This document shows positions 1,165-14,683 of a DNA stretch of 64,000 bases, piece by piece. The stretch comes from an uncultured Gammaproteobacteria bacterium (lineage in GTDB: Bacteria > Patescibacteriota > Microgenomatia > UBA8517). Made by a program: the position numbers and the translations under genes. The notes under the pieces are model-generated. The model did not search any database, was not told the origin of the DNA, and saw only the letters and a list, made by a program, of their open reading frames with translations. Each line of letters begins with the position of its first letter. The first letter of the stretch is position 1. Location of the stretch: the NCBI GenBank assembly GCA_964645605.1, contig CAZYCE010000002.1:67256-131255 (forward strand), read 5' to 3'.

Positions 1165-2004
1165 TTATTCTGATTGTAGTTCTATTTTTTTTAATTGCCC
1201 TCGAATTTTTCCACCAAGAAACATTTCAGCCACTTTAGTAAATCTTGGTGTTAAATCAGTGACATAAAACACGATACTACCATTTTTCTTTTGAACGTTC
1301 AGTAATTTATTCTCCTCAAGGTATGCGGCAACCTCGCGGGCAACTGATTTACCCGGGTTAATTAGGTTTATTTTTTCTCCTAATTCCTTTTTTATTGTAT
1401 CCTCAATTATTGGATAATGTGTACAACCCATAATCAAAGTGTCGATATTCTGCTCCTTTAATTCCTTCAAATATCTTTTTGCAATTATTTTCAAGGCTGG
1501 GCTTTCAATCTCCCCTTCTTCGATAAAAGGAACAAAAAGCGGACACGCAACACTGAAAACTTTTATTCCGGAGCGTAATTTTGAAATCTTTTCGGGGTAA
1601 GCATGGCTCCCGACGGTTCCGCGTGTACCGATAACTCCAATTCTTTCTCCCTTTTTTACGGCATCTATCGAGGCCGGCTCAATTACTTCAAAAACGGGCG
1701 CTTTTTTAAATTTATTTTTTATGTAACCTGCCGCAACAGCCGAAGATGTGTTGCAGGCAATTACAACAATTTTGACTTTTTTGGTTAACAGAAATTTAGT
1801 ATTATCTATCGAAAATTTTCTGATTGTCGCAGTTCCCCTTGGCCCATAGGGAACTCTGGCCGTATCCCCTAGATACACGATATCTTCATGGGGAAGAATT
1901 TTCATCAATTCCTTGACAACGGTAAGTCCGCCAAGCCCTGAATCAAAAACCCCAATTGGACGGTTATTTAATTTCTGCATTAAGGGTATTATACGACAAT
2001 TCAC
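1165..2004 (-). CDS. murI: Glutamate racemase
   Basis: IGVFDSGLGGLTV, VIACNTSSA and GCTHYP match the two-cysteine racemase motifs. The true start is probably the internal Met at ~1980 (MQKLNN...). Confidence 0.9.
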   Translation of the reverse strand: MNCRIIPLMQKLNNRPIGVFDSGLGGLTVVKELMKILPHEDIVYLGDTARVPYGPRGTATIRKFSIDNTKFLLTKKVKIVVIACNTSSAVAAGYIKNKFKKAPVFEVIEPASIDAVKKGERIGVIGTRGTVGSHAYPEKISKLRSGIKVFSVACPLFVPFIEEGEIESPALKIIAKRYLKELKEQNIDTLIMGCTHYPIIEDTIKKELGEKINLINPGKSVAREVAAYLEENKLLNVQKKNGSIVFYVTDLTPRFTKVAEMFLGGKIRGQLKKIELQSE

Positions 2005-3013
2005 ATATCCGCTTTTGCCCGTCTTCCGTTAATTGTGGACCAAGGGGTAAATATATTATTTTTTGCTTTTTTGTCCATTTAGATCCTTCAAGCTCCAATC
2101 TCACAAATATTTTGTTAATTCTAAGCTTTTCTACGATTTTTGCCGCATTCTTTTTGTGTAAAATAACCGGATAGCCGCGTATGTTCCTTTTATTGCTTTC
2201 TGAAATTAATAATTTTTGAGGAAGTACACTACCCAGCTTTCTTTCATAATAAGATGCTTGCCTCTTTTTTATGTTTCTAATTTTTTTAATATTTATCCGA
2301 ATACTTAGAAATTTTGAGATAAAACCACCTCTTGCCGGAAGTTTGCTATCTCCGATCAAATTGTATCCGCGAACCATCAGCCTTTCTGCAATCTTGCCAA
2401 ATTTGAATGACCAGGCCAAAACCATTAAAAACCAAAGGGTCTTCACTTTTACTGAATAAAAAAATGATTGGTAGAAAGGTGGCGCGGAAAAATCCAAATC
2501 TTCAGTTCTTCCGTAAACATTTGAGCCCTGAAGAGGCAAGACTTTTCTTAAACTATCAATGACGAAATGGTTTTTCTTAATAATCTCAATTTCATTCGGT
2601 TCTATTATTCTATGAACACAATCCTCAACTAAGAACCTATTCCCCGTCGCCTTCTTAAGCCATTCAACATTATTCATTAAATTGGTTTTAATTCCGACCG
2701 GATGAAATATTACAACGACTGCTGGATTAAATTTATTTATCTTGTTTTCAAAATCATCTTTGTCAGCTTTCAGGTTGGGAAGAATTTTATAGTGTGCCAC
2801 CTTATATCCATGTTTTTTGATATTACTTTCCACATCAACGCAATAAAAATCAGGAATTAGGATATAAGAGCCCTTAGCAACATTTCTTTTAATCAGAATA
2901 TCCCACAATGCATCTTCCCAAGAAAGATAGAAAAGCCGCTTTATACCTTTAGTTATTTTATTTTTGCGAAACCGAAAATTTTTCAGACTAAGCACGGGCT
3001 GCGATGTTATCAT
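1964..3013 (-). CDS. Hypothetical protein with a DegT/DnrJ/EryC1-like PLP-dependent aminotransferase fold (tentative)
   Basis: 349 aa. SWEDALWDILIKRNVAKGSYILIPDFYCVDVESNIKKHGYKV resembles the DegT N-terminal pattern (sGTdAL...GDEVIvPsfTf.at..ai..G). FLVEDCVHRI resembles the EDaAha motif. SLRKVL may be the Lys-containing segment. Confidence 0.45.
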   Translation of the reverse strand: MITSQPVLSLKNFRFRKNKITKGIKRLFYLSWEDALWDILIKRNVAKGSYILIPDFYCVDVESNIKKHGYKVAHYKILPNLKADKDDFENKINKFNPAVVVIFHPVGIKTNLMNNVEWLKKATGNRFLVEDCVHRIIEPNEIEIIKKNHFVIDSLRKVLPLQGSNVYGRTEDLDFSAPPFYQSFFYSVKVKTLWFLMVLAWSFKFGKIAERLMVRGYNLIGDSKLPARGGFISKFLSIRINIKKIRNIKKRQASYYERKLGSVLPQKLLISESNKRNIRGYPVILHKKNAAKIVEKLRINKIFVRLELEGSKWTKKQKIIYLPLGPQLTEDGQKRICELSYNTLNAEIK

Positions 3014-3032: not shown

Positions 3033-5354
3033 TCAATGTTTGAGGCTTAATACGGCTTCTTTGAATTTGTTACCGCGATCTTTGTAGTTTTTGAACATAT
3101 CAAAACTGGCTGCGGCCGGAGACAAAATTACCACACCACCGCGTTTGGTTATTTTATGCGCCGCTTCAATAATTTCAATCATTGCGACGTGCCCTAAACT
3201 AATTATATTTTTTCCGGAAATATTACCGCCAATTTTTTCACCCATGTCCCCAATTAAAATTAGATTTTTAACATTCGACTTCCCTCTAATTACTTTTCTT
3301 AATTCTGAATAGTCCAGACCTTTATCACTTCCCCCAAGAATTAACGTTTCATCTTCCGTAAAAGAGTTTATCGCCGCAATTGTCGGTTGAGGTCCTGTGG
3401 CGAATGAATCGTTGTAATATTTGACGCCATCAATTTCAGCAACAAGCTCGAGTCTATGCTCCAAACCTTTGAAACTTCTTACAACATTCAAAATAGTTTT
3501 CTCGTCTACCCCAATTGTCTTGCAGGTTGCAACGGCAGCCGCAATATTTTCCAGATTATGCTCGCCCCGAAGCAGAATCCTCTCTTTATATTTTTTATCA
3601 AGCTTTTCTTTGGAGAAAAATACTACTTTACCGCCGGTGATTTCCGCAAAAGATTTAGGTGTCTCGTATCCCTCATTAATAATCCCGAAGTCTAAATCGG
3701 ATTGATATCGGACTATATTCTTTTTGGCATCTATATACTCTTCCCTGTTTTTATGCCAATCCATATGGTCTTTAGTTATATTTAAAACAACAGAAACGTG
3801 CGGACTTTTTTCCATATCAATTAGTTGGAAAGATGAAAGTTCCAAAACTACCCAAGAATTTTCCGTAAGTTTTGGGAGAATTTCAAGCGAAGGCTTACCG
3901 ATATTGCCACTCAGATAAACATCGCGGTCGTCTGCCTTTAAAATTTCGTAAATTAATGTTGATGTGGTTCCTTTTCCTTTTGTACCCGTAATCCCGATTA
4001 TTTTTCCGGGGCATTCATTAAAAAAAATTTTAATCGCTGACGTAATAACAGTCCCTCCGTTTTTTGCCTCCGTTATCTCCGGTATAAAGGGATAAACCCC
4101 CGGGGATCTGACAATGTAGTCAAAACCGGTAATGCCGTTTTTCAAATAACCGGAACCGCAAACAATTTGTATTTTTGATTTATCAATATTTTCAAAATCC
4201 AATTCGTTCTCCTGTTTTTTGTCAAAAAGAGTAACGCTAGCGTTCCGTTTCAATAAATATTTGATTGCGTCCTTTCCCTCAATGCCCAACCCTAATACTG
4301 CCACCTTCTTACCATCGTATAGCGAGCTTTGCTTATCTGCATGTTTCTCCGTATCAAAATTTATTAATTGGACTTCTCTTTCAAGATTGATTCCGAATTT
4401 TTTCTTAACGTCCTTAATAATCATCTCGGAAAGATCATAAACATCCTTAGCCGTTGCATGCCCCGTTTTATTGATCAGAACGAGGGCGTGTTTTGGAGAA
4501 ACCGCCGCCCCCCCAAGTTCTTTGCCTTTCAACCCCGCGTTTTCAATAAGCCAACCGGCAGAGACTTTGTACTTGTTTTCAAAAGGATAAATTTTAATAT
4601 TGGGGTACTTTTTAATAAGCTCATTCTTTTTATCTAAATTAATGATTGGGTTTTTAAAAAATGATCCAGCGTTGCCAAATTCTCTAGGGTTTTCCAATTT
4701 TTGATTTCTGAGCTTAAGCACACCTTCACGGATTTCTTTCAACGAATCATTTTCTCCGAGGATGTCTTTAAGTGATTCATAAGACATCTTGCTCTTACCG
4801 TTTTTGTTAAGTTTAAACGTAACATTTAATATTAAAAACTTTTGTCGGAAACCAGCTCTTTTAAAAATACTATCTCTGTATTCAAAATGGCAGTTTTCCT
4901 TTTCAAAAGTAACTATCGAGTCGTTAGAAAGATCATACGCTTCGAGTTTATAGAATGTGTCGGCAATTTCCGACCCATATGCACCGATGTTTTGTACAGG
5001 AGAAGCTCCGACCGTTCCCGGTATTCCCGAGAGGCATTCCAATCCCTGCAATCCCTCCTCAACAGAAATCTTAACAAGATCGTCCCATTTCATACCAGCT
5101 TCAGCCGTAATGTATTCTCCATCCACATGGTAAGAATCACCCACGTACTTTATTACCAAACCATTAAAATCTTTATCGCTGGCAACGAAATCACTTCCTC
5201 CACCCAAAATAAATATCGGAAGATTGTTGCTTCGGGCAAATTTGGCTGCCTCCGCCAAATCATCTATGTTTTTTACCTCGATGTAGTATTTTATTTTTCC
5301 ACCAACCCGGAATGTCGTCAGATTTTTAAAATATTTATCTTGTCGAAATTTCAT
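3033..5354 (-). CDS. murB-murD: Fusion protein: UDP-N-acetylenolpyruvoylglucosamine reductase (MurB, N-terminal) joined to UDP-N-acetylmuramoyl-L-alanine--D-glutamate ligase (MurD, C-terminal)
   Basis: 773 aa single frame. aa 1-~335 carry the MurB FAD-binding ILGGGSDF and the C-terminal SAGWLIENAGLKGKELGGAAVSPKHALVLIN. aa ~345-773 carry the MurD Rossmann KKVAVLGLGIEGKDAIKYL, the P-loop GITGTKGKGTT and a Mur-ligase C-terminal domain. Confidence 0.85.
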   Translation of the reverse strand: MKFRQDKYFKNLTTFRVGGKIKYYIEVKNIDDLAEAAKFARSNNLPIFILGGGSDFVASDKDFNGLVIKYVGDSYHVDGEYITAEAGMKWDDLVKISVEEGLQGLECLSGIPGTVGASPVQNIGAYGSEIADTFYKLEAYDLSNDSIVTFEKENCHFEYRDSIFKRAGFRQKFLILNVTFKLNKNGKSKMSYESLKDILGENDSLKEIREGVLKLRNQKLENPREFGNAGSFFKNPIINLDKKNELIKKYPNIKIYPFENKYKVSAGWLIENAGLKGKELGGAAVSPKHALVLINKTGHATAKDVYDLSEMIIKDVKKKFGINLEREVQLINFDTEKHADKQSSLYDGKKVAVLGLGIEGKDAIKYLLKRNASVTLFDKKQENELDFENIDKSKIQIVCGSGYLKNGITGFDYIVRSPGVYPFIPEITEAKNGGTVITSAIKIFFNECPGKIIGITGTKGKGTTSTLIYEILKADDRDVYLSGNIGKPSLEILPKLTENSWVVLELSSFQLIDMEKSPHVSVVLNITKDHMDWHKNREEYIDAKKNIVRYQSDLDFGIINEGYETPKSFAEITGGKVVFFSKEKLDKKYKERILLRGEHNLENIAAAVATCKTIGVDEKTILNVVRSFKGLEHRLELVAEIDGVKYYNDSFATGPQPTIAAINSFTEDETLILGGSDKGLDYSELRKVIRGKSNVKNLILIGDMGEKIGGNISGKNIISLGHVAMIEIIEAAHKITKRGGVVILSPAAASFDMFKNYKDRGNKFKEAVLSLKH

Positions 5355-6550
5355 TTGAGTAATTCAACCGCTTTCCTTGCCCACAAATAACTTTTTCCTG
5401 CACCCATGACAACAATTACCCTATAATTTCTATTTTCTAATTTCAAATTTCTAAACATATTCTCGATGCTGTCAAACGCCTCAATGTTTTTATGTTTGGA
5501 TGCGTCGGCCACTTTTTGGGGAGTGATAGACTTATCGACTTCATCTCGAGCCTGAAAAATCGGACCGATAAACACTTTATCGGCTGCGTCAAAAACCCCA
5601 CTATACATGCGTAAGAGTGCCCCGGTACGTTTATATCCATGGGGTTCGTCAATAACCAAAATTTTTGCTTTTGGATATTTTTCGCGGACTCCCTTAAGGG
5701 TTTCTCTTATAGCCGTAGGATGGTGGGCGTAGTCATCGTAGACCTTAATCTCGTTTTCTCCTGAAATAAGTTCAAGTCTTCTTCCGATTCCGCCAAACGA
5801 TTCTAAGGATTTAACTATTTCGCTCTCACTGATGCCCAATTTTTTCCCTAAGACATAAACCATATTTGCATTCTTTTGGTTAAACTCTCCCATTATCCTC
5901 AAATTGAAATGCCTATGGGGACTATCCTCCGGAGTAATTAAAATCCTTTCCCCCTTTAAATTATTTATAAATTTATCAAACGAGCTTTTGACTTCCTCTT
6001 CGTCTTTGAAAAAGTCGGGGTGATCAAATTCAATATTATTTATAATTGCTATATCCGGATGGTAATGTAAAAAGTTGTTATTAAACTCATCCGCCTCGAC
6101 AACTGCATATTCCCCATTACCAAAACGTGAGTTTCCATTCCATTCGGGAACAAATGCTCCGACAACAATCGTGGGGTTAAACCCCGCATCAATAAGCATT
6201 TTTCCGGCCATTGCAGTGGTGGTGGATTTTCCATGGGTGCCTGCAATACAAATCAATTTTTTGTTTTTGAGAAGAACTGTCCCCAAAAATTCCTGCCAAG
6301 TCATTAGCTTGTTTTGTTTTTTGGCCTCAATAATCTCCGGATTATTACCACTTTGGTAAAGCACTGCAGGGCTTACAACTACCAAATCGGCCTCTGGGAC
6401 ATGAGAGGCGCTGTGTCCCTGAACAATCCCCTTTCTATATGCGGTATTGGCTTCGAGGTCGCAACCGCTAACTTCGTATCCAAATTTTTCCGCTAAATAA
6501 GCTACACCCGAAATGCCGCTTCCTCCGATTCCGACAAAGTGAATATGCAT
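5351..6550 (-). CDS. murC: UDP-N-acetylmuramate--L-alanine ligase
   Basis: 399 aa. HFVGIGGSGISGVA, P-loop GTHGKSTTTAM and DDYAHHP match MurC. It overlaps the murB-murD start by 4 nt. Confidence 0.9.
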   Translation of the reverse strand: MHIHFVGIGGSGISGVAYLAEKFGYEVSGCDLEANTAYRKGIVQGHSASHVPEADLVVVSPAVLYQSGNNPEIIEAKKQNKLMTWQEFLGTVLLKNKKLICIAGTHGKSTTTAMAGKMLIDAGFNPTIVVGAFVPEWNGNSRFGNGEYAVVEADEFNNNFLHYHPDIAIINNIEFDHPDFFKDEEEVKSSFDKFINNLKGERILITPEDSPHRHFNLRIMGEFNQKNANMVYVLGKKLGISESEIVKSLESFGGIGRRLELISGENEIKVYDDYAHHPTAIRETLKGVREKYPKAKILVIDEPHGYKRTGALLRMYSGVFDAADKVFIGPIFQARDEVDKSITPQKVADASKHKNIEAFDSIENMFRNLKLENRNYRVIVVMGAGKSYLWARKAVELLK

Positions 6551-6585
6551 TCTTTATGCTTGTATTATATCAGCATTCACGGCAA

Positions 6586-7062
6586 TCAAACACTTTTAAG
6601 AAGGTTTTTATCGATAATTTCCTGAAGGCTTCCAACAACATATTTAGGCACAACCTTAGTCTCTAAATCCTTATACCTTCCCCGTCTGACCCGGACAACA
6701 AAGAATCCTTTGGCCACTCCTGCCTCAATAACTTCAGGTTTATCATCAATTAATACCACTTTTTTTTCAGATTCATTTACAACGTTCATTTTAGAGAAAC
6801 TTGAAAATATTTGAACTCCGTCTGTAAAAAATTTTTCTATCCCGGTTCCTATTATCTTTTCCATTTGAAATTTCTTATCCCCCTCCGAAAATAAAACCGT
6901 ATCGCCAAAACCTGAAGCGTATTTAATAAACGGGATCGCATCCGGATAAAGAAAGTCTTTGTAGTTTATATGCGCGGGAGAGTCCGATAGATGCTTTACA
7001 AATTCCCCGGTATTAAAAATTGTATGATCGAAGTCAATAAAGATTTTCACTCCCTTTTCCAT
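6586..7062 (-). CDS. Small HAD-superfamily hydrolase (probable phosphatase)
   Basis: 158 aa. Motif I FIDFDHT (DxDxT) and motif IV VLIDDKPEV are present. Confidence 0.7.
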   Translation of the reverse strand: MEKGVKIFIDFDHTIFNTGEFVKHLSDSPAHINYKDFLYPDAIPFIKYASGFGDTVLFSEGDKKFQMEKIIGTGIEKFFTDGVQIFSSFSKMNVVNESEKKVVLIDDKPEVIEAGVAKGFFVVRVRRGRYKDLETKVVPKYVVGSLQEIIDKNLLKSV

Positions 7063-7064
7063 TA

Positions 7065-8303
7065 TTAGTCTTCTACCTTCGACCCCACCCCGTACGAACC
7101 TTTTAGAATTTTGCCGGGAAAAACGACAGATCCTTCTCCAATTATGGTTCCGGGCATTGTAGAAACACGAATACCCACTTTTACCCCGTCGCCCATGAAA
7201 ACTCCAATATTACTTACTCCGGTTTCGACATTTGTTCCTTTAACTTTAGCCGACACCGGAGACCTGTCCAATCTCTTATTTGCAGTTATAAATCCCGCTC
7301 CAACTCTACAATTTTTTCCGATAATGGAGTCCCCGACAAAACCGGAGTGAATATGTGTTCCCTCGCCGATAAGAGAATTTTTGACATCGCAATATCTTTC
7401 AATCTCCGTACCGTTTTCCAGTATTGTTCCCGCGCGGACCTGGCTATATGCACCCACCACTGCATTTTTTCCTATGTAACAAGGCCCTTCAATCAGCGCA
7501 AAATCGTAAATATGGGCACCCTCGCCTATGAATATTCCTTCGCCCTTAAGAATAGCTGTCTTTTCAATGACTGCAGTCGGATCAACACCTTCACCAACCT
7601 CCGATAATATGAAATCTTTAAGTTTCATAAGATCCCAAGGATATTTCAAAGACGGTAAGTTCGAGGAAACACGGACCGAGCCGACTTTTCCGTTTTTGGC
7701 TTCTTTATCTAAAACAAACTCTAAAGAATAATCTGTAACGGGGCTTTCCGCTAGTTTATTAAGAAAATCAAGCGATAGAAGGTAAACTCCGACAAGCCGC
7801 ATGTTTGATGGTTCCTTTCCTGCGTCAGGCTTTTCGACCACGCCCTGCACCTTATCCGCCTGAAGCTCGACAATCCCATATTTAGAGGGAGTATCCGTCT
7901 CTGTTATGCCGACGGTCACAGAGTCCCCTGATTTTTCGTGTGCCTCGATAAAGCTGTCGGCAATAGAATGAAAATTAAATTGATTAGCATTTATCACGAA
8001 AAAATCGTCCTTAATGAGTTCTTTTGCCGATAAAATTGCGTCCCCTTGGCCCAGAGGACTTTCTTCCCTAACAAACTTTACGTCGGAAAAAACGGGGAGT
8101 GATTCACAAATGGTTTTTTCTTTTTCGAAATCCTTCGAACCTAAAACCAATATGATTTCCGAGGGATTAAGCTTTTTCACACTCTCAATGGTTCTTTCCA
8201 GAATTGTTTTACCGGCAATACTGAAAAAGCTCTTATGAATATTGTTGAAAGGGAAAAATCTTGAAGATTCTCCGCCAGCCAATATTACAACCTGATATTT
8301 CAT
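7065..8303 (-). CDS. GlmU-like bifunctional sugar-1-phosphate nucleotidyltransferase / left-handed beta-helix acetyltransferase
   Basis: 412 aa. The N-terminus has VILAGGESSRF (nucleotidyltransferase G-rich loop). The C-terminus has multiple hexapeptide repeats (IGKNAVVG..., IGEGTHIHSGFVGDSIIGKNCRVGAG). This is the GlmU / archaeal-type architecture. Confidence 0.7.
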   Translation of the reverse strand: MKYQVVILAGGESSRFFPFNNIHKSFFSIAGKTILERTIESVKKLNPSEIILVLGSKDFEKEKTICESLPVFSDVKFVREESPLGQGDAILSAKELIKDDFFVINANQFNFHSIADSFIEAHEKSGDSVTVGITETDTPSKYGIVELQADKVQGVVEKPDAGKEPSNMRLVGVYLLSLDFLNKLAESPVTDYSLEFVLDKEAKNGKVGSVRVSSNLPSLKYPWDLMKLKDFILSEVGEGVDPTAVIEKTAILKGEGIFIGEGAHIYDFALIEGPCYIGKNAVVGAYSQVRAGTILENGTEIERYCDVKNSLIGEGTHIHSGFVGDSIIGKNCRVGAGFITANKRLDRSPVSAKVKGTNVETGVSNIGVFMGDGVKVGIRVSTMPGTIIGEGSVVFPGKILKGSYGVGSKVED

Positions 8304-8304
8304 A

Positions 8305-9600
8305 TTATTTGCCCATATATTCTCTCACAATTTCCTGGTCAGACCAAGGAATTTCATGAATTCCGTCTAAATTCATGGATTTTTCATGCCCTTTTCCAAA
8401 TATACCGACGCTATCGCCTTTGCCGGCGTTTTTAAGTGCAATGCCGATTGCCTTTTTTCTGTCCGGCTCTTCTATTACTTTTACTTTTGAATCTTTAGAT
8501 TCCATGCCCGATTTTATCTCGGCAATTATATCTTCTACCTTTTCACTCCTGGGGTCCTCTGCCGTAAGAATCACTTCATCGGCCAATCTTGATGCAATTT
8601 TCCCCATTTTCGGGCGCTTAAAAGGATCTCTTTCACCCGCACATCCGAAAACCGCAATCAGTTTTCCCCGGGTTTTCCCGCGTAAATATTTTAATACGGC
8701 TTCAAGAGACTCGGGAGTATGGGCAAAATCAACAACAATTTTAATACCTTTAGAATTCTTAATTTCTTCAAATCTCCCCTCCGGCATGTTAAAAGACTCC
8801 ATTGTTTTGAGAGCAGATTCTTTATCTATGCCCAAAAATTCCATTGTTTTCAGAGCGATCTCGATATTTAAGTTATTAAATTTACCCGGAAGTATGTCCA
8901 AATCGGTATCAACGGGACCTAATACTTTATACCTACAGGAGTCTATAAAAGACTTTTTTACCCTTTTATATTCTTCAAAGGTCTTGTGATAGTCCAGATG
9001 CTCAGGTGCTATATTAGTCAAAACCCCTATATCAAAAGAGATTCCGGCAATCCTTTTCTGATCAATTCCATGGGAACTAACCTCGATAATGGCGTATTGC
9101 ATTCCTGCGTCGACCATTTCCTTCAAAAACCCGTGAAGAGAGATAGCGTCCGGGGTTGTGACATGGAAGCCTGTATCGATTTCCCTATCTCCGATTTTTG
9201 CGGCATTCGAGGTCACCAAACCGACTTTTTTGCCGAGCCTACTAAGCATGTGGTAAATGATAAAGCAGGTTGTCGTTTTACCCTTCGTGCCGGTTACACC
9301 GATTATTTTAAGCTTTTGTGAAGGATCTCCAAACCAAGCGGAGGCGAGGATCCCAAGCGCCTCACGGGAATCTTGGACTTTGATATAACCAGCATTCTCA
9401 ATTTCAAGCTCTTCTTCACCTACTATTATTTTTGCTCCATTTTTTATTGCCTCTCCAATATATTTGTGACCGTCAGAATGCAGGCCCTTCACGGCAACAA
9501 AAATATAGTTTTCTTTGACTTTGCCGGAGTTCGCTGAAATTCCCGAATATTTGGAGATGTTTTTTTTCAGCTCACTAAGATTTTGGTAAATGCTCTCCAT
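8305..9600 (-). CDS. murE: UDP-N-acetylmuramoyl-L-alanyl-D-glutamate--2,6-diaminopimelate (or L-Lys) ligase
   Basis: 431 aa. P-loop GVTGTKGKTTT, HVTTPD and the Mur-ligase central and C-terminal domains are present. Confidence 0.85.
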   Translation of the reverse strand: MESIYQNLSELKKNISKYSGISANSGKVKENYIFVAVKGLHSDGHKYIGEAIKNGAKIIVGEEELEIENAGYIKVQDSREALGILASAWFGDPSQKLKIIGVTGTKGKTTTCFIIYHMLSRLGKKVGLVTSNAAKIGDREIDTGFHVTTPDAISLHGFLKEMVDAGMQYAIIEVSSHGIDQKRIAGISFDIGVLTNIAPEHLDYHKTFEEYKRVKKSFIDSCRYKVLGPVDTDLDILPGKFNNLNIEIALKTMEFLGIDKESALKTMESFNMPEGRFEEIKNSKGIKIVVDFAHTPESLEAVLKYLRGKTRGKLIAVFGCAGERDPFKRPKMGKIASRLADEVILTAEDPRSEKVEDIIAEIKSGMESKDSKVKVIEEPDRKKAIGIALKNAGKGDSVGIFGKGHEKSMNLDGIHEIPWSDQEIVREYMGK

Positions 9601-10684
9601 AAATCGATTTTACATCAAAATTGATACTAATTAATGTAGCATCGTCTTTAAGTTTCATTCTCGGAATCTTGGTAAAATCAGAGTCCGATTCCAATATTGA
9701 GGCACCCCGCATCAGAGGCGACTCATTTTCCGATGTCTCAAGACTTCCGACAAAATTCCGGACTGCAGTGCCCACGGAAGTGTCCTTTTCCATGTACGGC
9801 AAAATTGCCCCGTCAGAAAACATTAAAATCGAGCAAAGGTCGTCGTTTATAGGTATTGAATCCGTATAAATTAAATTATTACTGATCATTTCCACCATGC
9901 CATTCATAATTCCGCAACCGCCTACTTTGTTAGTTTTCCTATGAAATGATTCGATCAGTTGCCGACGCAATAGCTCCTTTGCTTCCGGGATACTTCTAAA
10001 TTTCGATAAATTAGAATTAAATTTTTCCGACAGTTCCCGGGCATAATCCATGGTTTCTTTATCAAATTTTTCATTCAGGTTTGGGGTAACTATCTTTACT
10101 GCTTTCTTTTGATCAACAACGGCAATAGCACAATCGGCAACTTGCGCAAGCGTAAGTCTTTTTTCCGAAATATCGACAAGTAAAAATGCCGCTGCCATCC
10201 CCGGAACTGAACATGCATCCGAATAGTCGATGCCCGGAACTTGCTTTAGTCTGGTGTGAATCCAGCTGTTCATGGCCATCATTGCGTCTTTTGCGGTCAA
10301 TTCCTGCCTTGTACACAATTCTTGACACTCAAGGCTTCCGGCAAAGTCCATAGAGGCCATATGCGAAATATAAAAAGCGCCGCTAATCCCGACATCGTCA
10401 AGTCCTTCTATTTTCTTTTGACTTGAAGCCCCGTCAAGCACCGCAAACAATGTTCTACCCTTTCCCATGGGAAGCACCGTATAAGAATCTTCATTTTTCT
10501 TTCCTTCAGCACCGGAGCCTAATGTTTCCATGTAGGCCGATCCAAAAGTATATTTCTCCGACTTTATATCGTGTTCCACTCGCGTCATATCTACATACCT
10601 CAGGAACGAGAACATGCGGCTCCGCATGGAAAGATCCCGGAGACTGTCGGTTTCGGAGTGGCTGGTTTTAATTTCTATTTCCAT
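9575..10684 (-). CDS. PP2C-family (PPM) serine/threonine protein phosphatase
   Basis: 369 aa. The PPM motifs are present: NEDS (motif 1), LFAVLDGASS (motif 2, cf. FAVFDGHGG), MFSDGAILPY (DG..D motif) and the C-terminal DDATLISINF (DDiTvivv-like). Confidence 0.65.
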   Translation of the reverse strand: MEIEIKTSHSETDSLRDLSMRSRMFSFLRYVDMTRVEHDIKSEKYTFGSAYMETLGSGAEGKKNEDSYTVLPMGKGRTLFAVLDGASSQKKIEGLDDVGISGAFYISHMASMDFAGSLECQELCTRQELTAKDAMMAMNSWIHTRLKQVPGIDYSDACSVPGMAAAFLLVDISEKRLTLAQVADCAIAVVDQKKAVKIVTPNLNEKFDKETMDYARELSEKFNSNLSKFRSIPEAKELLRRQLIESFHRKTNKVGGCGIMNGMVEMISNNLIYTDSIPINDDLCSILMFSDGAILPYMEKDTSVGTAVRNFVGSLETSENESPLMRGASILESDSDFTKIPRMKLKDDATLISINFDVKSIYGEHLPKS

Positions 10685-10694
10685 GGTTAGAAAA

Positions 10695-11018
10695 CTAGAT
10701 TACCTTTTCTGCTTTCTTCATAGCGTTAAATGGCAAAGGGGCTTTATCGGGATCTCCGATGTATTCAGGAAAACCCGGAGCAGGTACTGCATTAACCAAA
10801 ATTTGTTCTTTGCCTCTGCTAAAGAGGGCCGCGTAGTGAACTCCGTTACCCTCGCTCGCTTCAGGGTAGACTAACACGCTTTTTTCGGCATCAGGAAAAT
10901 TATTGTTCACTTTTTCAATAATTTTAGTAACGGAATTCCGGCAATCGTTTGCTGCCGTCAAAGAGTCATCTTCCTGAAGAAGTTTTCTTACAAAACCGCC
11001 AATGTTCTCTATAGACAT
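10695..11018 (-). CDS. Hypothetical small protein (107 aa)
   Basis: ORF only. No recognisable motifs. It is tightly packed between nagB and the PP2C gene. Confidence 0.4.
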   Translation of the reverse strand: MSIENIGGFVRKLLQEDDSLTAANDCRNSVTKIIEKVNNNFPDAEKSVLVYPEASEGNGVHYAALFSRGKEQILVNAVPAPGFPEYIGDPDKAPLPFNAMKKAEKVI

Positions 11019-11026
11019 TAGATTAG

Positions 11027-11824
11027 TTAATTCAGCCTATCAAGAAGGCTTCCCGCCCCCCGGTCAAGAATAAAGGTAACGGCCGGATGTAGTCTTAAAA
11101 ACGAGGCAGGGGCATCCTCACAAACATCCCCTTCTAAGACCTTTTTCATTCCCGCCGCTTTACCCGAACCTTTAGCTATTAGAATTATTCTCTTTGATTC
11201 CATTATGTCTGCGATTCCCTGTGTTATAGCCAAGTGGGGAACCTTGCTTTCGTCTCCGTCGAAAAATCTGGCATTCGCTTTAATAGTTTCGGAATCGATT
11301 CGAACCAACCTGGTTCTGGAATCAACTTTTGAACCGCGTTCGTTAAAGGCGATATGACAGGTAAGACCCGGTCCTATACCCAAAACGGTTAGATCGGAAG
11401 GCCCTATTTCTTTCAGGACTGATTGGTACCTGACCACTTCATCCTCCGGATCTTCAGCCGAAGAATCGGGAATGTGCCTATGGCTCGCGGGGATGTTGAC
11501 ATGATCAAAAAGATTATCCCGCATAAAACGATAATAGCTCTGTGGATGGTCCTTTGGCAACGGCCAGTATTCGTCGAGATTCTTTGTGATTACCTTGCTC
11601 ATATCCAGTTTTTTTTCGCGGTACGCTTCAATCATCAAACTATATAGGCCCAAAGGGGAGAATCCCGTGGCTAAGGTAAGTACTGCATCGGGTTTTCCGA
11701 GAATGGTATCAGCCATGATATCAAAGGCGTATTTATCAACCTCAGCACCTGAAGGCAACAAAACCACATCGGGCGAGGATACCTGAAGATTTTCTGACAG
11801 CGAACTCAAAAATTCGGATGTCAT
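11027..11824 (-). CDS. nagB: Glucosamine-6-phosphate deaminase / 6-phosphogluconolactonase family (NagB-like)
   Basis: 265 aa. VLTLATGFSP and LGIGPGLTCHIAFNERGS resemble the NagB LGIGPDGHIAFNEP active-site segment. Confidence 0.7.
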   Translation of the reverse strand: MTSEFLSSLSENLQVSSPDVVLLPSGAEVDKYAFDIMADTILGKPDAVLTLATGFSPLGLYSLMIEAYREKKLDMSKVITKNLDEYWPLPKDHPQSYYRFMRDNLFDHVNIPASHRHIPDSSAEDPEDEVVRYQSVLKEIGPSDLTVLGIGPGLTCHIAFNERGSKVDSRTRLVRIDSETIKANARFFDGDESKVPHLAITQGIADIMESKRIILIAKGSGKAAGMKKVLEGDVCEDAPASFLRLHPAVTFILDRGAGSLLDRLN

Positions 11825-11879
11825 ATAGTTATTAACTATCTATATCATTTTACACCCCTTATGCAAGCCGGTTGTCAAT

Positions 11880-13655
11880 TTATTTCACAGTAACGGATTT
11901 TGCTAAATTTCTGGGTTTATCCGGATCTAAGCCTTTTTTTATCGTTAAATAATAGGCAAGAATTTGTGCCGCAACAATTTCCGGAATAATGGAAGCCTCT
12001 CCTGCATCGGCAATGTGTATATAATAATCAAACACCTCATGTGGCTTATAGGAAATACCTATAATATACCCTCCTCTGGCTCTCATTTCCATGGCACCTG
12101 CGAGATTTGCACCGTATGTTTCATCATTGGGTAGAAAGCTAATGCAAGGTGTTCCCTTTTCTACAAGTGCCAGAGGACCGTGTTTTAGCTCGCCTGCCGC
12201 CAAACCTTCAGCGTGAATATATGAAACTTCTTTTATTTTTAGGGCTGTCTCTAAACTTGCCGGATAAGAAAGGCCCCGCCCAATTACGTAAATATGATCC
12301 TTGTTTACGATTTTAGATGCCAAGAGGTCAATTTTTTTCAAAGATTTCGGTGAAAGTACTTCCTTAACTGAGGCTACTGAAGCCATAAGCGCTTTCCTGC
12401 CTTCCTCCACCCCACCATTAAGTGAATTAGCCAAAAGTATAAGATGGGATAGCATCCCCGTCAGAGCTTTGGTGGAAGCAACTGCTCTTTCCTGTCCGGC
12501 ACCAATCAGCATTTTGTAGTCTGAAAGTCTATAAAGTGAAGATCCAGGAACATTGACTAAACCCAATATTTTTGCCCCCTTATCCTTTGCTTTTTTTACG
12601 GACTCGAGGATATCCATGGTCTCGCCCGACTGAGAAATCGCTATCACGAGACTGTCTTTATTTAAAAAATCAAGACTGTACCCAAACTCGCTGCCGATTG
12701 CCCAATTTACATGCCTTTTGGCAATCTTCGAGAAAAGATAGGAACCCGCCAAACAAGCATAAGAAGCCGTCCCGCAACCTACCAAATATGTTCCCCGTGC
12801 ATTTTTAATTATTTTGGCAATTCTTTCCGTCTGAGCGGATGCCGAAATGGCAATGTCTCCCATGATTTGAGGCTGTTCAAAAATTTCTTTGAGCATAAAG
12901 TGTTCATATTTTCCTTTTTTATCCACATCAACCTTCCAATCTAGTTTTTGAATATGCGGAATTATCTTTTTGCCGGTTTTAACATTTAAAATTGTCACTT
13001 TATCGGGTGAAAGAATTGCCATTTCATTGTCTTCAAGAAAATAGATTTCCTTTGTATAGCTAATAAGCGAAGAGGCGTCGCTTGCAAGGAAATTTTCATT
13101 TTTACCGTATCCTATTGCCAGGGGTGATCCGTTTCTGGCGGCTATAATTAAATTTTCCTTTGCGCTTACCGCAATTATGGCATTAAGCCCTTCCATCCGA
13201 TTAAAAGTTTTTCTTACAGACTCAACAAAAGTCCCGGTTTTGGAATAATCCTCAATTAGATGAGAAAGCGTCTCCGTGTCTGTTTCGGAGGTAAACTTAT
13301 GACCATTTGTAAGTAATTCTTTTTTTATACCCTCGTAATTCTCAAAAATTCCATTATGAATAACAGCAACTGTTTTTGTACAATCAAGAAGGGGATGGGC
13401 ATTAGCTTCCGTCACTCCTCCGTGTGTTGCCCAACGCGTATGGCCGAATGATAAATGGCTCTTAGGGAGGTTGTCGACATTGGCATTTCCGATTTTCCCG
13501 ATCCTCTTTTTGACTACAATTTTGCTTTCTTTACCAATGGGGATAACCCCGACTCCCCAGCTATCATACCCACGATATTCAAGGCTTTTCAGACCCTTAA
13601 AAACAATGCTCTGTCCGTTATCTTTGTAGCCGATATATCCGAATATTCCGCACAT
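11880..13655 (-). CDS. glmS: Glutamine--fructose-6-phosphate aminotransferase (isomerizing)
   Basis: 591 aa. The N-terminal MCGIFGY Ntn-amidotransferase domain is followed by two SIS domains and a C-terminal ...VTVK. Confidence 0.95.
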   Translation of the reverse strand: MCGIFGYIGYKDNGQSIVFKGLKSLEYRGYDSWGVGVIPIGKESKIVVKKRIGKIGNANVDNLPKSHLSFGHTRWATHGGVTEANAHPLLDCTKTVAVIHNGIFENYEGIKKELLTNGHKFTSETDTETLSHLIEDYSKTGTFVESVRKTFNRMEGLNAIIAVSAKENLIIAARNGSPLAIGYGKNENFLASDASSLISYTKEIYFLEDNEMAILSPDKVTILNVKTGKKIIPHIQKLDWKVDVDKKGKYEHFMLKEIFEQPQIMGDIAISASAQTERIAKIIKNARGTYLVGCGTASYACLAGSYLFSKIAKRHVNWAIGSEFGYSLDFLNKDSLVIAISQSGETMDILESVKKAKDKGAKILGLVNVPGSSLYRLSDYKMLIGAGQERAVASTKALTGMLSHLILLANSLNGGVEEGRKALMASVASVKEVLSPKSLKKIDLLASKIVNKDHIYVIGRGLSYPASLETALKIKEVSYIHAEGLAAGELKHGPLALVEKGTPCISFLPNDETYGANLAGAMEMRARGGYIIGISYKPHEVFDYYIHIADAGEASIIPEIVAAQILAYYLTIKKGLDPDKPRNLAKSVTVK

Positions 13656-13666
13656 ATTTTGAGTAA

Positions 13667-14683
13667 TTAATCTGCCGAGTTGAGAGAATCCACCACCTTT
13701 AAAATGGCTTTACGGAGTTTATTGGAATCATGCCTGATAATGCTGCGGAAAAGCTTGTCGCCTTTCTCTTTTTTGGGTAGCTTGTCAGACAAAAGATCTG
13801 TCCGAATTATGCGAACATTCGGATTGACTTGACCTATTTTTAAATCATCTTCGATGGGAAAATTATCCATTTCCGCATAAGCTCTTAGGGCAGCTTTGGG
13901 ATAGTTCGTATTATTATTAACCAAAACGTAATCAAAGAGCGTGAGAGGCATGTATTTTTTGAGATCTTCAAAAAAATCAGACAGAGAATAGTAGGGAGTT
14001 TCACTCATGGAATTCATTAGATTGCCGATAAACATAATTTTTCCTTTTGTATTATTGAGTGCTCCGACTACCCCATCCACAACCAAGTCTGCAATCGTGT
14101 TTGTATAAAAACCTCCGGGACCGATAATTATCAGATCGGCATCAAGAATTGCTTTTTCCGCTTCTTTGTTTATTTTTGCTTTTGGCGTCGTTGTCAAATT
14201 TTTAATTCTGCTGCCGGGATATTTGGGAACGTCTATATTATGTTCGCCTATCACCTTTTTACCGTTTTCATACTCCGCAACCAACCTCACATTGTCATAG
14301 CTAATCGGAAAAATATCTCCTCTTACCTGCAATAGACGACATGTTTCCTCTATCCCTTTTTTCTGGGATCCCATTATGTCGGCCATTGCCGCCATAAACA
14401 AATTACCGAAAGTCATTCCGTCTAATCCCTTGCCGCCTTTACTGTATCGATAAGTAAAAAGTTTCCGGAGCACTGTCTTATTTTCGGAAAGTGCCACTAT
14501 CGCTTGCCTAATCCCGGATGTCGGTAAAAGACCAAACTCGTCACGGATTATGCGATTTGATCCTCCGTCATCAACCATTGTCATAAGCATTGTTATGTGT
14601 ACCGGGGCGGAGCTTAAACCGGAAGCAACAACATAAGAGCCTGTTCCTCCCCCGATGATCACAATTTCAGGAATTTTATTCAT
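13667..14683 (-). CDS. YvcK/CofD-family (UPF0052) gluconeogenesis factor-like protein
   Basis: 338 aa. IVIIGGGTGSYVVASGL and DLIIIGPGGFYTN are typical of the YvcK/CofD family. Confidence 0.8.
   Translation of the reverse strand: MNKIPEIVIIGGGTGSYVVASGLSSAPVHITMLMTMVDDGGSNRIIRDEFGLLPTSGIRQAIVALSENKTVLRKLFTYRYSKGGKGLDGMTFGNLFMAAMADIMGSQKKGIEETCRLLQVRGDIFPISYDNVRLVAEYENGKKVIGEHNIDVPKYPGSRIKNLTTTPKAKINKEAEKAILDADLIIIGPGGFYTNTIADLVVDGVVGALNNTKGKIMFIGNLMNSMSETPYYSLSDFFEDLKKYMPLTLFDYVLVNNNTNYPKAALRAYAEMDNFPIEDDLKIGQVNPNVRIIRTDLLSDKLPKKEKGDKLFRSIIRHDSNKLRKAILKVVDSLNSAD

Follow-up and report, generated by a model that had tools for sequence, protein, structure and literature searches.

Which process does a PPM/PP2C-type phosphatase serve when its gene lies inside an array of cell-wall genes and has no kinase gene beside it? 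The question is raised by a 64,000-nt stretch of contig CAZYCE010000002.1 (positions 67,256-131,255 of the forward strand, assembly GCA_964645605.1), referred to here in its whole length as the window. A first-pass annotation had read a 369-aa open reading frame (ORF) of this stretch as a PPM/PP2C-like protein and had proposed, from its position next to Mur ligase and transpeptidase genes, that it takes part in phospho-regulation of peptidoglycan synthesis. Here we show that the 369-aa protein is indeed a PPM/PP2C whose catalytic centre is intact, that it belongs to a small, divergent and remodelled subfamily centred on Woesebacteria/Microgenomates of the Candidate Phyla Radiation (CPR), and that its conserved association is with genes for the supply of UDP-N-acetylglucosamine (UDP-GlcNAc), namely those for archaeal-type GlmU, YvcK/GlmR, GlmS and NagB.

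A PP2C with an intact catalytic centre

The only Pfam match of the 369-aa protein is to PF13672 (PP2C_2), at 38.5 bits against a gathering cut-off of 24, with residues 60-296 aligned to positions 8-177 of the 209-position profile, and precomputed PF13672 assignments are carried by most of its close homologues. The AlphaFold2 (AF2) model of the protein has a mean predicted local distance difference test score (pLDDT) of 92.8 and a predicted template modelling score (pTM) of 0.91. A Foldseek search of the PDB with this model returned 142 matches at E ≤ 1e-3, the top 50 of which are all PP2C/PPM structures with a probability of 1.00; PPM1A, PPM1K, PPM1B, Stp1, S. agalactiae STP and tPphA are among the matches. 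Template modelling (TM) scores reached 0.70 when normalised to the target and ranged from 0.38 to 0.49 when normalised to the query, the low values of the latter being due to extra elements in the 369-aa protein. No PDB chain was found by sequence, either with the single 369-aa sequence or with a 30-member family profile. The family match and the predicted fold thus bear out the PPM/PP2C identity given in the first-pass annotation, and the peptides that it had cited (NEDS, LFAVLDGASS, FSDGAIL and DDATLISI) are all found in the translation.

That annotation had also named the metal-binding Asp residues as the point on which the assignment would stand or fall. All of them are present and invariant: an alignment of 30 homologues has N64-E65-D66, D84-G85, D184, D291-G292 and D347-D348 without exception, and the same metal-site residues are invariant in 15 more members, which include distant relatives at 22-27% identity. 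The Asp residues that define PP2Cs reside in motifs 1, 2, 8 and 11, the last of which takes the form 'DD' in PF13672 groups IV and V (PMC12088040). On motif correspondence, D66 (in NED), D84 (DG), D291 (SDG) and D347/D348 (DDAT) are assigned as the four defining Asp, and D184 as the later-acquired third-metal Asp of motif 5 (GDSR-type). An hhalign comparison with a B. subtilis PrpC sequence gave a probability of 91% and placed PGMAA on GMGTT, VAD184 on GDSR and SD291G on SDG. Judged by its fold and motifs, the 369-aa protein is apparently a catalytically competent Mn2+/Mg2+-dependent phosphatase.

Conserved linkage to UDP-GlcNAc supply genes

To follow the gene across genomes, we gathered 61 related loci, mapped the window proteins on them and dereplicated the PP2Cs at 85% identity, which yielded 27 lineages. 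Across these lineages, the most conserved neighbour of the PP2C gene is that encoding the archaeal-type GlmU-like protein, which is co-directional and at most 1.4 kb downstream of PP2C in 10 of the 27 lineages, with a gap of just 4-55 nt in six of those ten, and is located 4-8 kb from PP2C in three further lineages. YvcK/GlmR is encoded within 5 kb of PP2C in 10 of the 27 lineages, and in one lineage (L003/L017) the genes are closely packed as GlmS-PP2C-GlmU-x-YvcK, the gaps measuring 35 and 4 nt. The gene encoding MurE stands between PP2C and the GlmU-like gene only in the sub-lineage of the window itself. The proposed tie of the phosphatase to Mur ligases and a transpeptidase is therefore not supported, since the linkage that is conserved is to UDP-GlcNAc genes and murE adjacency is a local feature.

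The linkage is not universal. About five lineages with long flanks show no link, their neighbours including an amino-acid kinase, ABC transporters and IS66. A rough neighbour-joining tree places linked members in each of the two major core subclades, which suggests that linkage is ancestral and has been lost several times. Even at protein identities of 36-42%, the PP2C-to-GlmU-like adjacency persists amid a reshuffled gene order, in which YvcK changes place and orientation, GlmS changes place and MurE is inserted, and such persistence is hard to explain without selection.

Within this conserved setting, no gene of the operon has diverged further than PP2C, which retains 45% identity against close syntenic relatives, compared to 79% for GlmS, 83% for MurA, 78% for YvcK, 75% for MurE and 67% for GlmU. 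In a sister lineage, represented by L053 and L054, where the 107-aa ORF that adjoins PP2C in the window (orf107) is 61% identical, PP2C is absent from its slot and the NagB-orf107-MurE series persists. As the most diverged gene and one that has been lost in these loci, PP2C appears to be accessory rather than a core pathway enzyme. L053 and L054 also encode a 263-aa Exo_endo_phos protein (L053:7594-8385, L054:3081-3872), which overlaps the end of murE and lies beside an inverted GlmU-like gene. One phosphoesterase could thereby have replaced another, or the arrangement may be coincidental; displacement of PP2C by this protein is left without support, as the protein occurs only there and an unrelated endonuclease/exonuclease/phosphatase gene co-occurs with PP2C in L056.

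Several other genes recur in these neighbourhoods. Those related to amino-sugar or acetyl-CoA supply comprise Cof-type HAD, IMPase-family, ATP-citrate-lyase-like, acetyl-CoA synthetase, YdjC and polysaccharide deacetylase genes. ATP-citrate-lyase-like genes (ATP-grasp_2/Citrate_bind, CoA-ligase, Citrate_synt) or acetyl-CoA synthetase genes are found inside hexosamine clusters (L001:11064-13751, L011:10956-, L012:6446-8296, L010:6038-7987), and their embedding suggests an in-house source of acetyl-CoA for the GlmU acetyltransferase. The GlmU-like gene is always accompanied by a second phosphatase-like gene. In the window lineage this is a 158-aa capless HAD (DxDxT) and in L012 an IMPase/FBPase-family gene; five other lineages have a Cof-type HAD-IIB encoded on the opposite strand (L025:2081-2935 and homologues). 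Directly upstream of the GlmU-like gene of L011 lies a gene for a 317-aa protein (L011:17749-18702) with a weak match to EcKL/APH-type kinases (E = 0.002); by analogy with AmgK/MurU, this protein may act as an anomeric sugar kinase in partnership with the uridylyltransferase.

A remodelled subfamily centred on CPR bacteria

The PP2C core of the 369-aa protein spans approximately residues 38-356 and is preceded by a helical N-terminal extension (residues 9-37). An insert of about 13 residues follows straight after the DG motif, and the usual position of the flap is occupied by a helical hairpin of 45 residues (205-250). The DG motif itself reads DGA-S/T-S-Q-K, as opposed to the canonical DGxGG, and all 45 aligned members carry S or T at position 87, a site occupied by Gly in canonical PP2Cs. 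The signature N252-x-P-x-G256-x-G258-x-x-N261-G262 stands in place of the usual R/S-A-L-G region, and it is followed by a stretch D334-P-[DE]...R342-x-K344-x-x-DDAT in which D334, R342 and K344 are invariant. Together with H108, S/T87, N252 and N261, these three make up the family-specific invariant polar residues. The protein resembles the bacterial PP2Cs of PF13672 groups IV and V in its four Asp, its motif-5 Asp and its 'DD' motif 11 (D347-D348), and departs from them in the DGA(S/T), N-x-P-x-G-x-G-x-x-N-G and D-P-[DE]...R-x-K-x-x-DDAT signatures.

The subfamily is small. Close homologues of the 369-aa protein number 43 among 5.8 billion clustered proteins, and the named ones belong to Woesebacteria, Roizmanbacteria, Pacebacteria and further CPR bins, in line with the CPR-type lineage suggested in the first-pass annotation. 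A family-profile search of 1.84 billion representatives returned 650 sequences at E ≤ 1e-3, of which 221 reach E ≤ 1e-10 and 58 reach E ≤ 1e-30, revealing a second tier of full-length relatives of 317-339 aa with the same signature, which include some from Saccharibacteria and from an acidobacterial bin and are in some cases auto-named 'PrpC'. Longer relatives (P0061 at 851 aa, P0089, P0127 and others) carry PP2C_2 only, with no informative additional domain, and a scan of viral contigs for distant PP2C relatives found none. Several metagenome-assembled genome records that carry the operon (L007, L012, L014, L015 and L017) have 'uncultured Gammaproteobacteria/Pseudomonadales bacterium' as their title; judging by gene content and by similarity to Woesebacteria loci, these labels seem to be wrong.

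A candidate role in tuning UDP-GlcNAc supply

The first-pass annotation had found neither a Ser/Thr kinase nor a STAS/anti-sigma partner in the window, and Pfam scans of about 60 window ORFs over the 64 kb agree with it, having detected no Pkinase, FHA, STAS, HATPase-type anti-sigma kinase or PGM_PMM domain. A tblastn search with a PknB kinase domain gave no match in the window or in the 61 related loci, and no homologue of a Hanks kinase or of GlmM turned up in about 572 kb of locus DNA or on a recheck of the extended locus set. The 27 dereplicated loci likewise gave no kinase, FHA or STAS gene. The window PP2C is unlike the partner-switching PP2Cs of the RsbU/RsbP/SpoIIE type, as the window has no STAS or HATPase_c gene.

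The reading that we tentatively favour, by analogy with known systems, is that of an accessory protein phosphatase that tunes hexosamine flux by way of the GlmU-like protein or GlmR, with its kinase encoded elsewhere; we infer phospho-regulation, a protein substrate and a regulatory role for the PP2C on this basis. The enzyme would strip a regulatory phosphate from a protein of the UDP-GlcNAc module, with the GlmU-like protein as the first candidate target and GlmR as the second, and dephosphorylation would set the flux at the branch point where fructose 6-phosphate (Fru-6-P) and glucosamine 6-phosphate (GlcN-6-P) interconvert and GlcN-6-P proceeds to UDP-GlcNAc. The opposing kinase would not be encoded in cis. 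GlmS and an equivalog-level NagB, which catalyse opposite reactions, are encoded side by side in one operon (window 11027-13655, minus strand), and post-translational control would make sense at such a point; the pairing implies either such control or NagB operating in the biosynthetic direction.

The GlmR (YvcK) protein of B. subtilis stimulates GlmS and acts as an accessory uridyltransferase that needs D38-D39; PrkC phosphorylates it at T304, and the PP2C PrpC resets it (PMC13046274). In M. tuberculosis, according to the mention made there of earlier work (Parikh et al. 2009, via PMC13046274), the acetyltransferase of GlmU is modulated by PknB. As in the PrpC/PrkC-GlmR system, a PP2C fold is connected in the window with YvcK/GlmR, GlmS and UDP-GlcNAc supply, and the window YvcK homologue passes the NCBIfam model and retains D38-D39 (phmmer against the BH3568 structure, E = 4e-48). 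Unlike PrpC, the window PP2C has no PASTA/Hanks kinase in cis and is encoded inside a hexosamine operon rather than beside a kinase, and at 369 aa it carries the N-terminal extension, the insert after the DG motif and the replaced flap. In Listeria, PrkA acts on YvcK. The likeness to PstP/PknB-GlmU of M. tuberculosis lies in GlmU, which is the target there and, in its archaeal-type form, the foremost conserved neighbour of PP2C here; the window GlmU differs in its NTP_transferase + LbH architecture, which is archaeal-type and lacks the C-terminal tail that bears the mycobacterial phospho-site.

Several observations weigh against this reading. The C-terminal region of YvcK that contains T304 in B. 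subtilis gave no alignment to the window homologue, and the 369-aa protein scores only 13.1 bits against a cut-off of 230 with the Stp1/IreP equivalog model NF033484. No gene for a Hanks kinase, a HATPase-type kinase or an FHA or STAS protein lies beside any core-family PP2C, and cognate bacterial PP2Cs are usually kinase-adjacent. By a motif register set by eye, the site of the canonical phosphate-binding Arg, three residues before NED, is Gly in the family consensus G-K-L-N-E-D, the adjacent residue being mostly K or R, and Q or I in some members; non-conservation of the motif-1 Arg and replacement of the flap would imply a substrate recognition unlike that of known protein phosphatases. Lastly, two of six sampled distant relatives are encoded beside hexose-1-phosphate enzymes that are unrelated to GlmU, and a shared metabolite explains those two contexts more simply than a shared phosphoprotein.

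Alternative functions

These points lead to a serious rival, which we regard as less likely than the favoured reading: the protein may be a PP2C-fold small-molecule phosphohydrolase acting on a hexose phosphate of the amino-sugar pathway (GlcN-6-P, N-acetylglucosamine 6-phosphate or a hexose 1-phosphate) or on a related metabolite. It could then serve as a safety valve against the build-up of sugar phosphates, or as the phosphatase half of a bypass from 6-phosphate through free sugar to 1-phosphate, and would be a functional analogue of HAD phosphatases such as NagD or MupP of amino-sugar and recycling operons. Inspection of the neighbourhoods of the six distant relatives revealed that P0081 (L055:4943-8346) lies 6 nt upstream of an equivalog-level GalT gene, with GalK and a weak cupin-PGI match nearby, and that P0092 (L059:599-6038) follows GalK and precedes an NDP-sugar NUDIX gene by 53 nt; the L055 and L059 relatives are full-length and match the family profile at E ~1e-34 to 1e-40. 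GlmU-like, GalT, GalK and NDP-sugar hydrolase have only hexose 1-phosphates in common. The lack of a kinase in cis at every core locus, the loss (by motif register) of the canonical motif-1 Arg and the many family-specific invariant polar residues, which suggest a defined pocket, point the same way. Set against this, the sugar-related context is limited to these two of the six distant relatives, since P0192 directly follows a gene for a HATPase_c protein, P0091 has a GH18 chitinase and an MFS transporter nearby and the remaining two contexts are uninformative. Other phosphatase-like genes (the 158-aa HAD, Cof-type HAD and IMPase) already stand beside the GlmU-like gene, the hydrolysis of pathway intermediates in a biosynthetic operon would be wasteful, and we know of no PP2C-fold enzyme with a physiological small-molecule substrate.

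More doubtful is a broader version, by which the entire subfamily would consist not of protein phosphatases but of the first PP2C-fold sugar-phosphate enzymes, acting on hexose 6- or 1-phosphates, and in its strongest form would take over from GlmM the supply of glucosamine 1-phosphate (GlcN-1-P) to the archaeal-type GlmU. Such an activity would explain why the neighbours are GlmU-like, GalT/GalK and NDP-sugar NUDIX genes and never a kinase gene.

Slightly less probable again is that the protein is a general housekeeping Ser/Thr phosphatase whose position in the cluster reflects inherited synteny with no functional tie. Bacteria typically have one or two PP2Cs of broad specificity (PMC12088040), and the lineages in which PP2C stands among amino-acid kinase, ABC transporter or IS66 genes are as this explanation would have it; it is at odds with the adjacency to the GlmU-like gene, kept at 36-42% identity despite a reshuffled gene order.

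The explanation that fares worst is that the PP2C is a non-orthologous replacement of GlmM, converting GlcN-6-P to GlcN-1-P by means of its binuclear metal centre and the S/T87 hydroxyl, by analogy with the metal-dependent mutases of the alkaline-phosphatase superfamily. Its appeal lies in the placement of PP2C exactly between GlmS and GlmU in L003/L017, in the lack of PGM_PMM domains in the window and of GlmM homologues in the related loci, in the GalK/GalT/cupin-PGI cluster of a distant relative, whose missing step is likewise phosphoglucomutase, and in the S or T of all 45 aligned members at position 87. It is nevertheless very improbable, because the gene evolves faster than any other in the operon, is lost in L053/L054 and is unlinked in several lineages, unlike an essential enzyme; because other bacteria commonly have glmM at a distance from their glmUS operons, and its absence from the cluster means little when the window also lacks MurF, MraY and MurG; because PP2C chemistry proceeds by direct attack of a metal-bound water with no phospho-enzyme intermediate; and because the ManC gene of the window implies a phosphohexomutase elsewhere in the genome. 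The 369-aa protein has none of the PGM_PMM domains I-IV and is not a GlmM homologue, which leaves a mutase role to analogy only.

The 107-aa neighbour

The first-pass annotation had described the 107-aa ORF as devoid of recognisable motifs, and Pfam and NCBIfam scans likewise gave no match. Its family has 51 members, all of approximately 100-116 aa, and the conserved homologues of both ORFs (43 for the 369-aa and 51 for the 107-aa protein) identify them as real genes rather than chance reading frames. Across 28 diverse members, the sole invariant positions are C26, H61, N76, V78, P84 and G88. In the AF2 model of the protein (pLDDT 85), three N-terminal helices are followed by a beta-meander; helix 26-40 begins with Cys26, His61 comes just before strand 62-68 and strand 71-76 ends with Asn76, an order and spacing that, in the model, correspond to those of a papain-type Cys-His-Asn triad.

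A Foldseek search with this model yielded nothing significant (best E = 0.33, probability ≤ 0.41); the sub-threshold matches are mostly papain-like or transglutaminase-like, among them a Josephin-type clippase, SseI, vasohibins, USP5 and the Ssp1 amidase. A STAS or FHA fold, which structure prediction had been suggested to reveal, was not found: the predicted topology lacks the beta-alpha alternation of STAS, and no STAS or FHA protein was among the Foldseek matches, so that both identities are ruled out. Like papain-like and transglutaminase-fold thiol enzymes, the model has its Cys at the N-terminal end of a helix and, after it, His and Asn on two successive beta-strands; it differs in that the 107-aa protein is smaller than known members and has no significant sequence or structure match to them.

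orf107 lies 8 nt downstream of NagB and keeps this position in L053 and L054, where PP2C has been lost, and is therefore not an obligate partner of PP2C. With moderate to low confidence, the model suggests a minimal thiol hydrolase or transferase working with NagB. In the mechanism that we favour for the PP2C, the 107-aa protein would be a separate small Cys-His-Asn enzyme coupled to NagB, and not a STAS/FHA-type partner of the phosphatase.

Gene array of the window

The genes surrounding PP2C (Table 1) belong to an array with the order mraZ - rsmH - 110-aa ORF - PBP transpeptidase - murA - yvcK/glmR - glmS - nagB - orf107 - PP2C - murE - archaeal-type glmU - 158-aa HAD-like - murC - murB::murD - 349-aa ORF - murI - ddl. 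From mraZ to ddl all genes are on the minus strand, with intergenic gaps of -41 to +55 nt, and co-transcription of the array is plausible; scans of the window for promoter and terminator consensus sequences gave counts not above those of shuffled sequences. The ORF list reproduces the positions and lengths previously given for the two ORFs, as well as the 26-nt overlap (9575-9600) between the 3' end of PP2C and the start of murE. The GlmU-like protein scores 279.7 bits with the NCBIfam Arch_glmU model, slightly below the cut-off of 292.1, and the 158-aa HAD-like gene is conserved after the GlmU-like gene in L007, L008 and L051.

Table 1. Window coordinates of PP2C and neighbouring genes, with the basis of their assignment
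Feature	Position	Strand	Details
PP2C gene	9575..10684	-	369 aa, ATG start; ORF list
orf107	10695..11018	-	107 aa, ATG start; putative minimal thiol (Cys26-His61-Asn76) enzyme
NagB, glucosamine-6-phosphate deaminase	11027..11824	-	NCBIfam TIGR00502 equivalog, 239.9 bits (cut-off 236.9); Pfam Glucosamine_iso, E = 1e-19
GlmS, glutamine--fructose-6-phosphate aminotransferase	11880..13655	-	591 aa; orthologues in related loci are GATase_6/7 + SIS, 76-80% identity
YvcK/GlmR-family (CofD-related)	13667..14683	-	Pfam CofD, E = 7.6e-67; NCBIfam TIGR01826 YvcK, 239 bits (cut-off 196)
MurE	8305..9600	-	orthologues with Mur_ligase domains; homologues align from residue 1
Archaeal-type GlmU-like, bifunctional sugar-1-phosphate nucleotidylyltransferase/acetyltransferase	7065..8303	-	Pfam NTP_transferase + Hexapep/LbH
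HAD-like protein	6586..7062	-	158 aa, N-terminal DxDxT; weak matches to NIF (E = 0.023) and HAD TIGR02253 (E = 5e-4)

Further features of the window lie apart from the PP2C gene. murB::murD is a single ORF of 773 aa (window 3033-5354, minus strand) with MurB in its N-terminal and MurD in its C-terminal part. In L008/L021 the two are encoded by separate adjoining genes (5907-6917 and 6947-8131), and L001/L009 have a MurC-MurB fusion instead, with an 823-aa product. The 349-aa ORF between murB::murD and murI (window 1964-3013, minus strand) has no Pfam or NCBIfam match. Window positions 29905-62816 hold a cell-surface glycan cluster of more than 30 kb, in which about seven membrane glycosyltransferases of the PMT_2 (dolichyl-phosphate-mannose) type are accompanied by numerous GT2/GT4 genes and by ManC, a flippase and a Wzy-like protein. 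GC content drops from about 0.40 to about 0.30 across 56-64 kb of the window, which may mark a laterally acquired segment.

Implications

The PP2C examined here is a member of a known superfamily, but it represents an uncharacterised, remodelled subfamily of about 650 representative clusters with a conserved, kinase-less linkage to UDP-GlcNAc genes, and a search of the literature found no description of PP2Cs in CPR glmS/glmU (hexosamine) operons. The 107-aa family stands beside it as a candidate minimal Cys-His-Asn enzyme linked to NagB. If the substrate of the PP2C were a sugar phosphate, PP2C-fold chemistry would extend beyond phosphoproteins and might fill a gap in the pathway. CPR bacteria have minimal genomes with few recognised regulators, and the retention of a PP2C in a UDP-GlcNAc operon suggests that the Fru-6-P/GlcN-6-P/UDP-GlcNAc node is controlled post-translationally, as is already known for GlmU and GlmR in Firmicutes and Actinobacteria.

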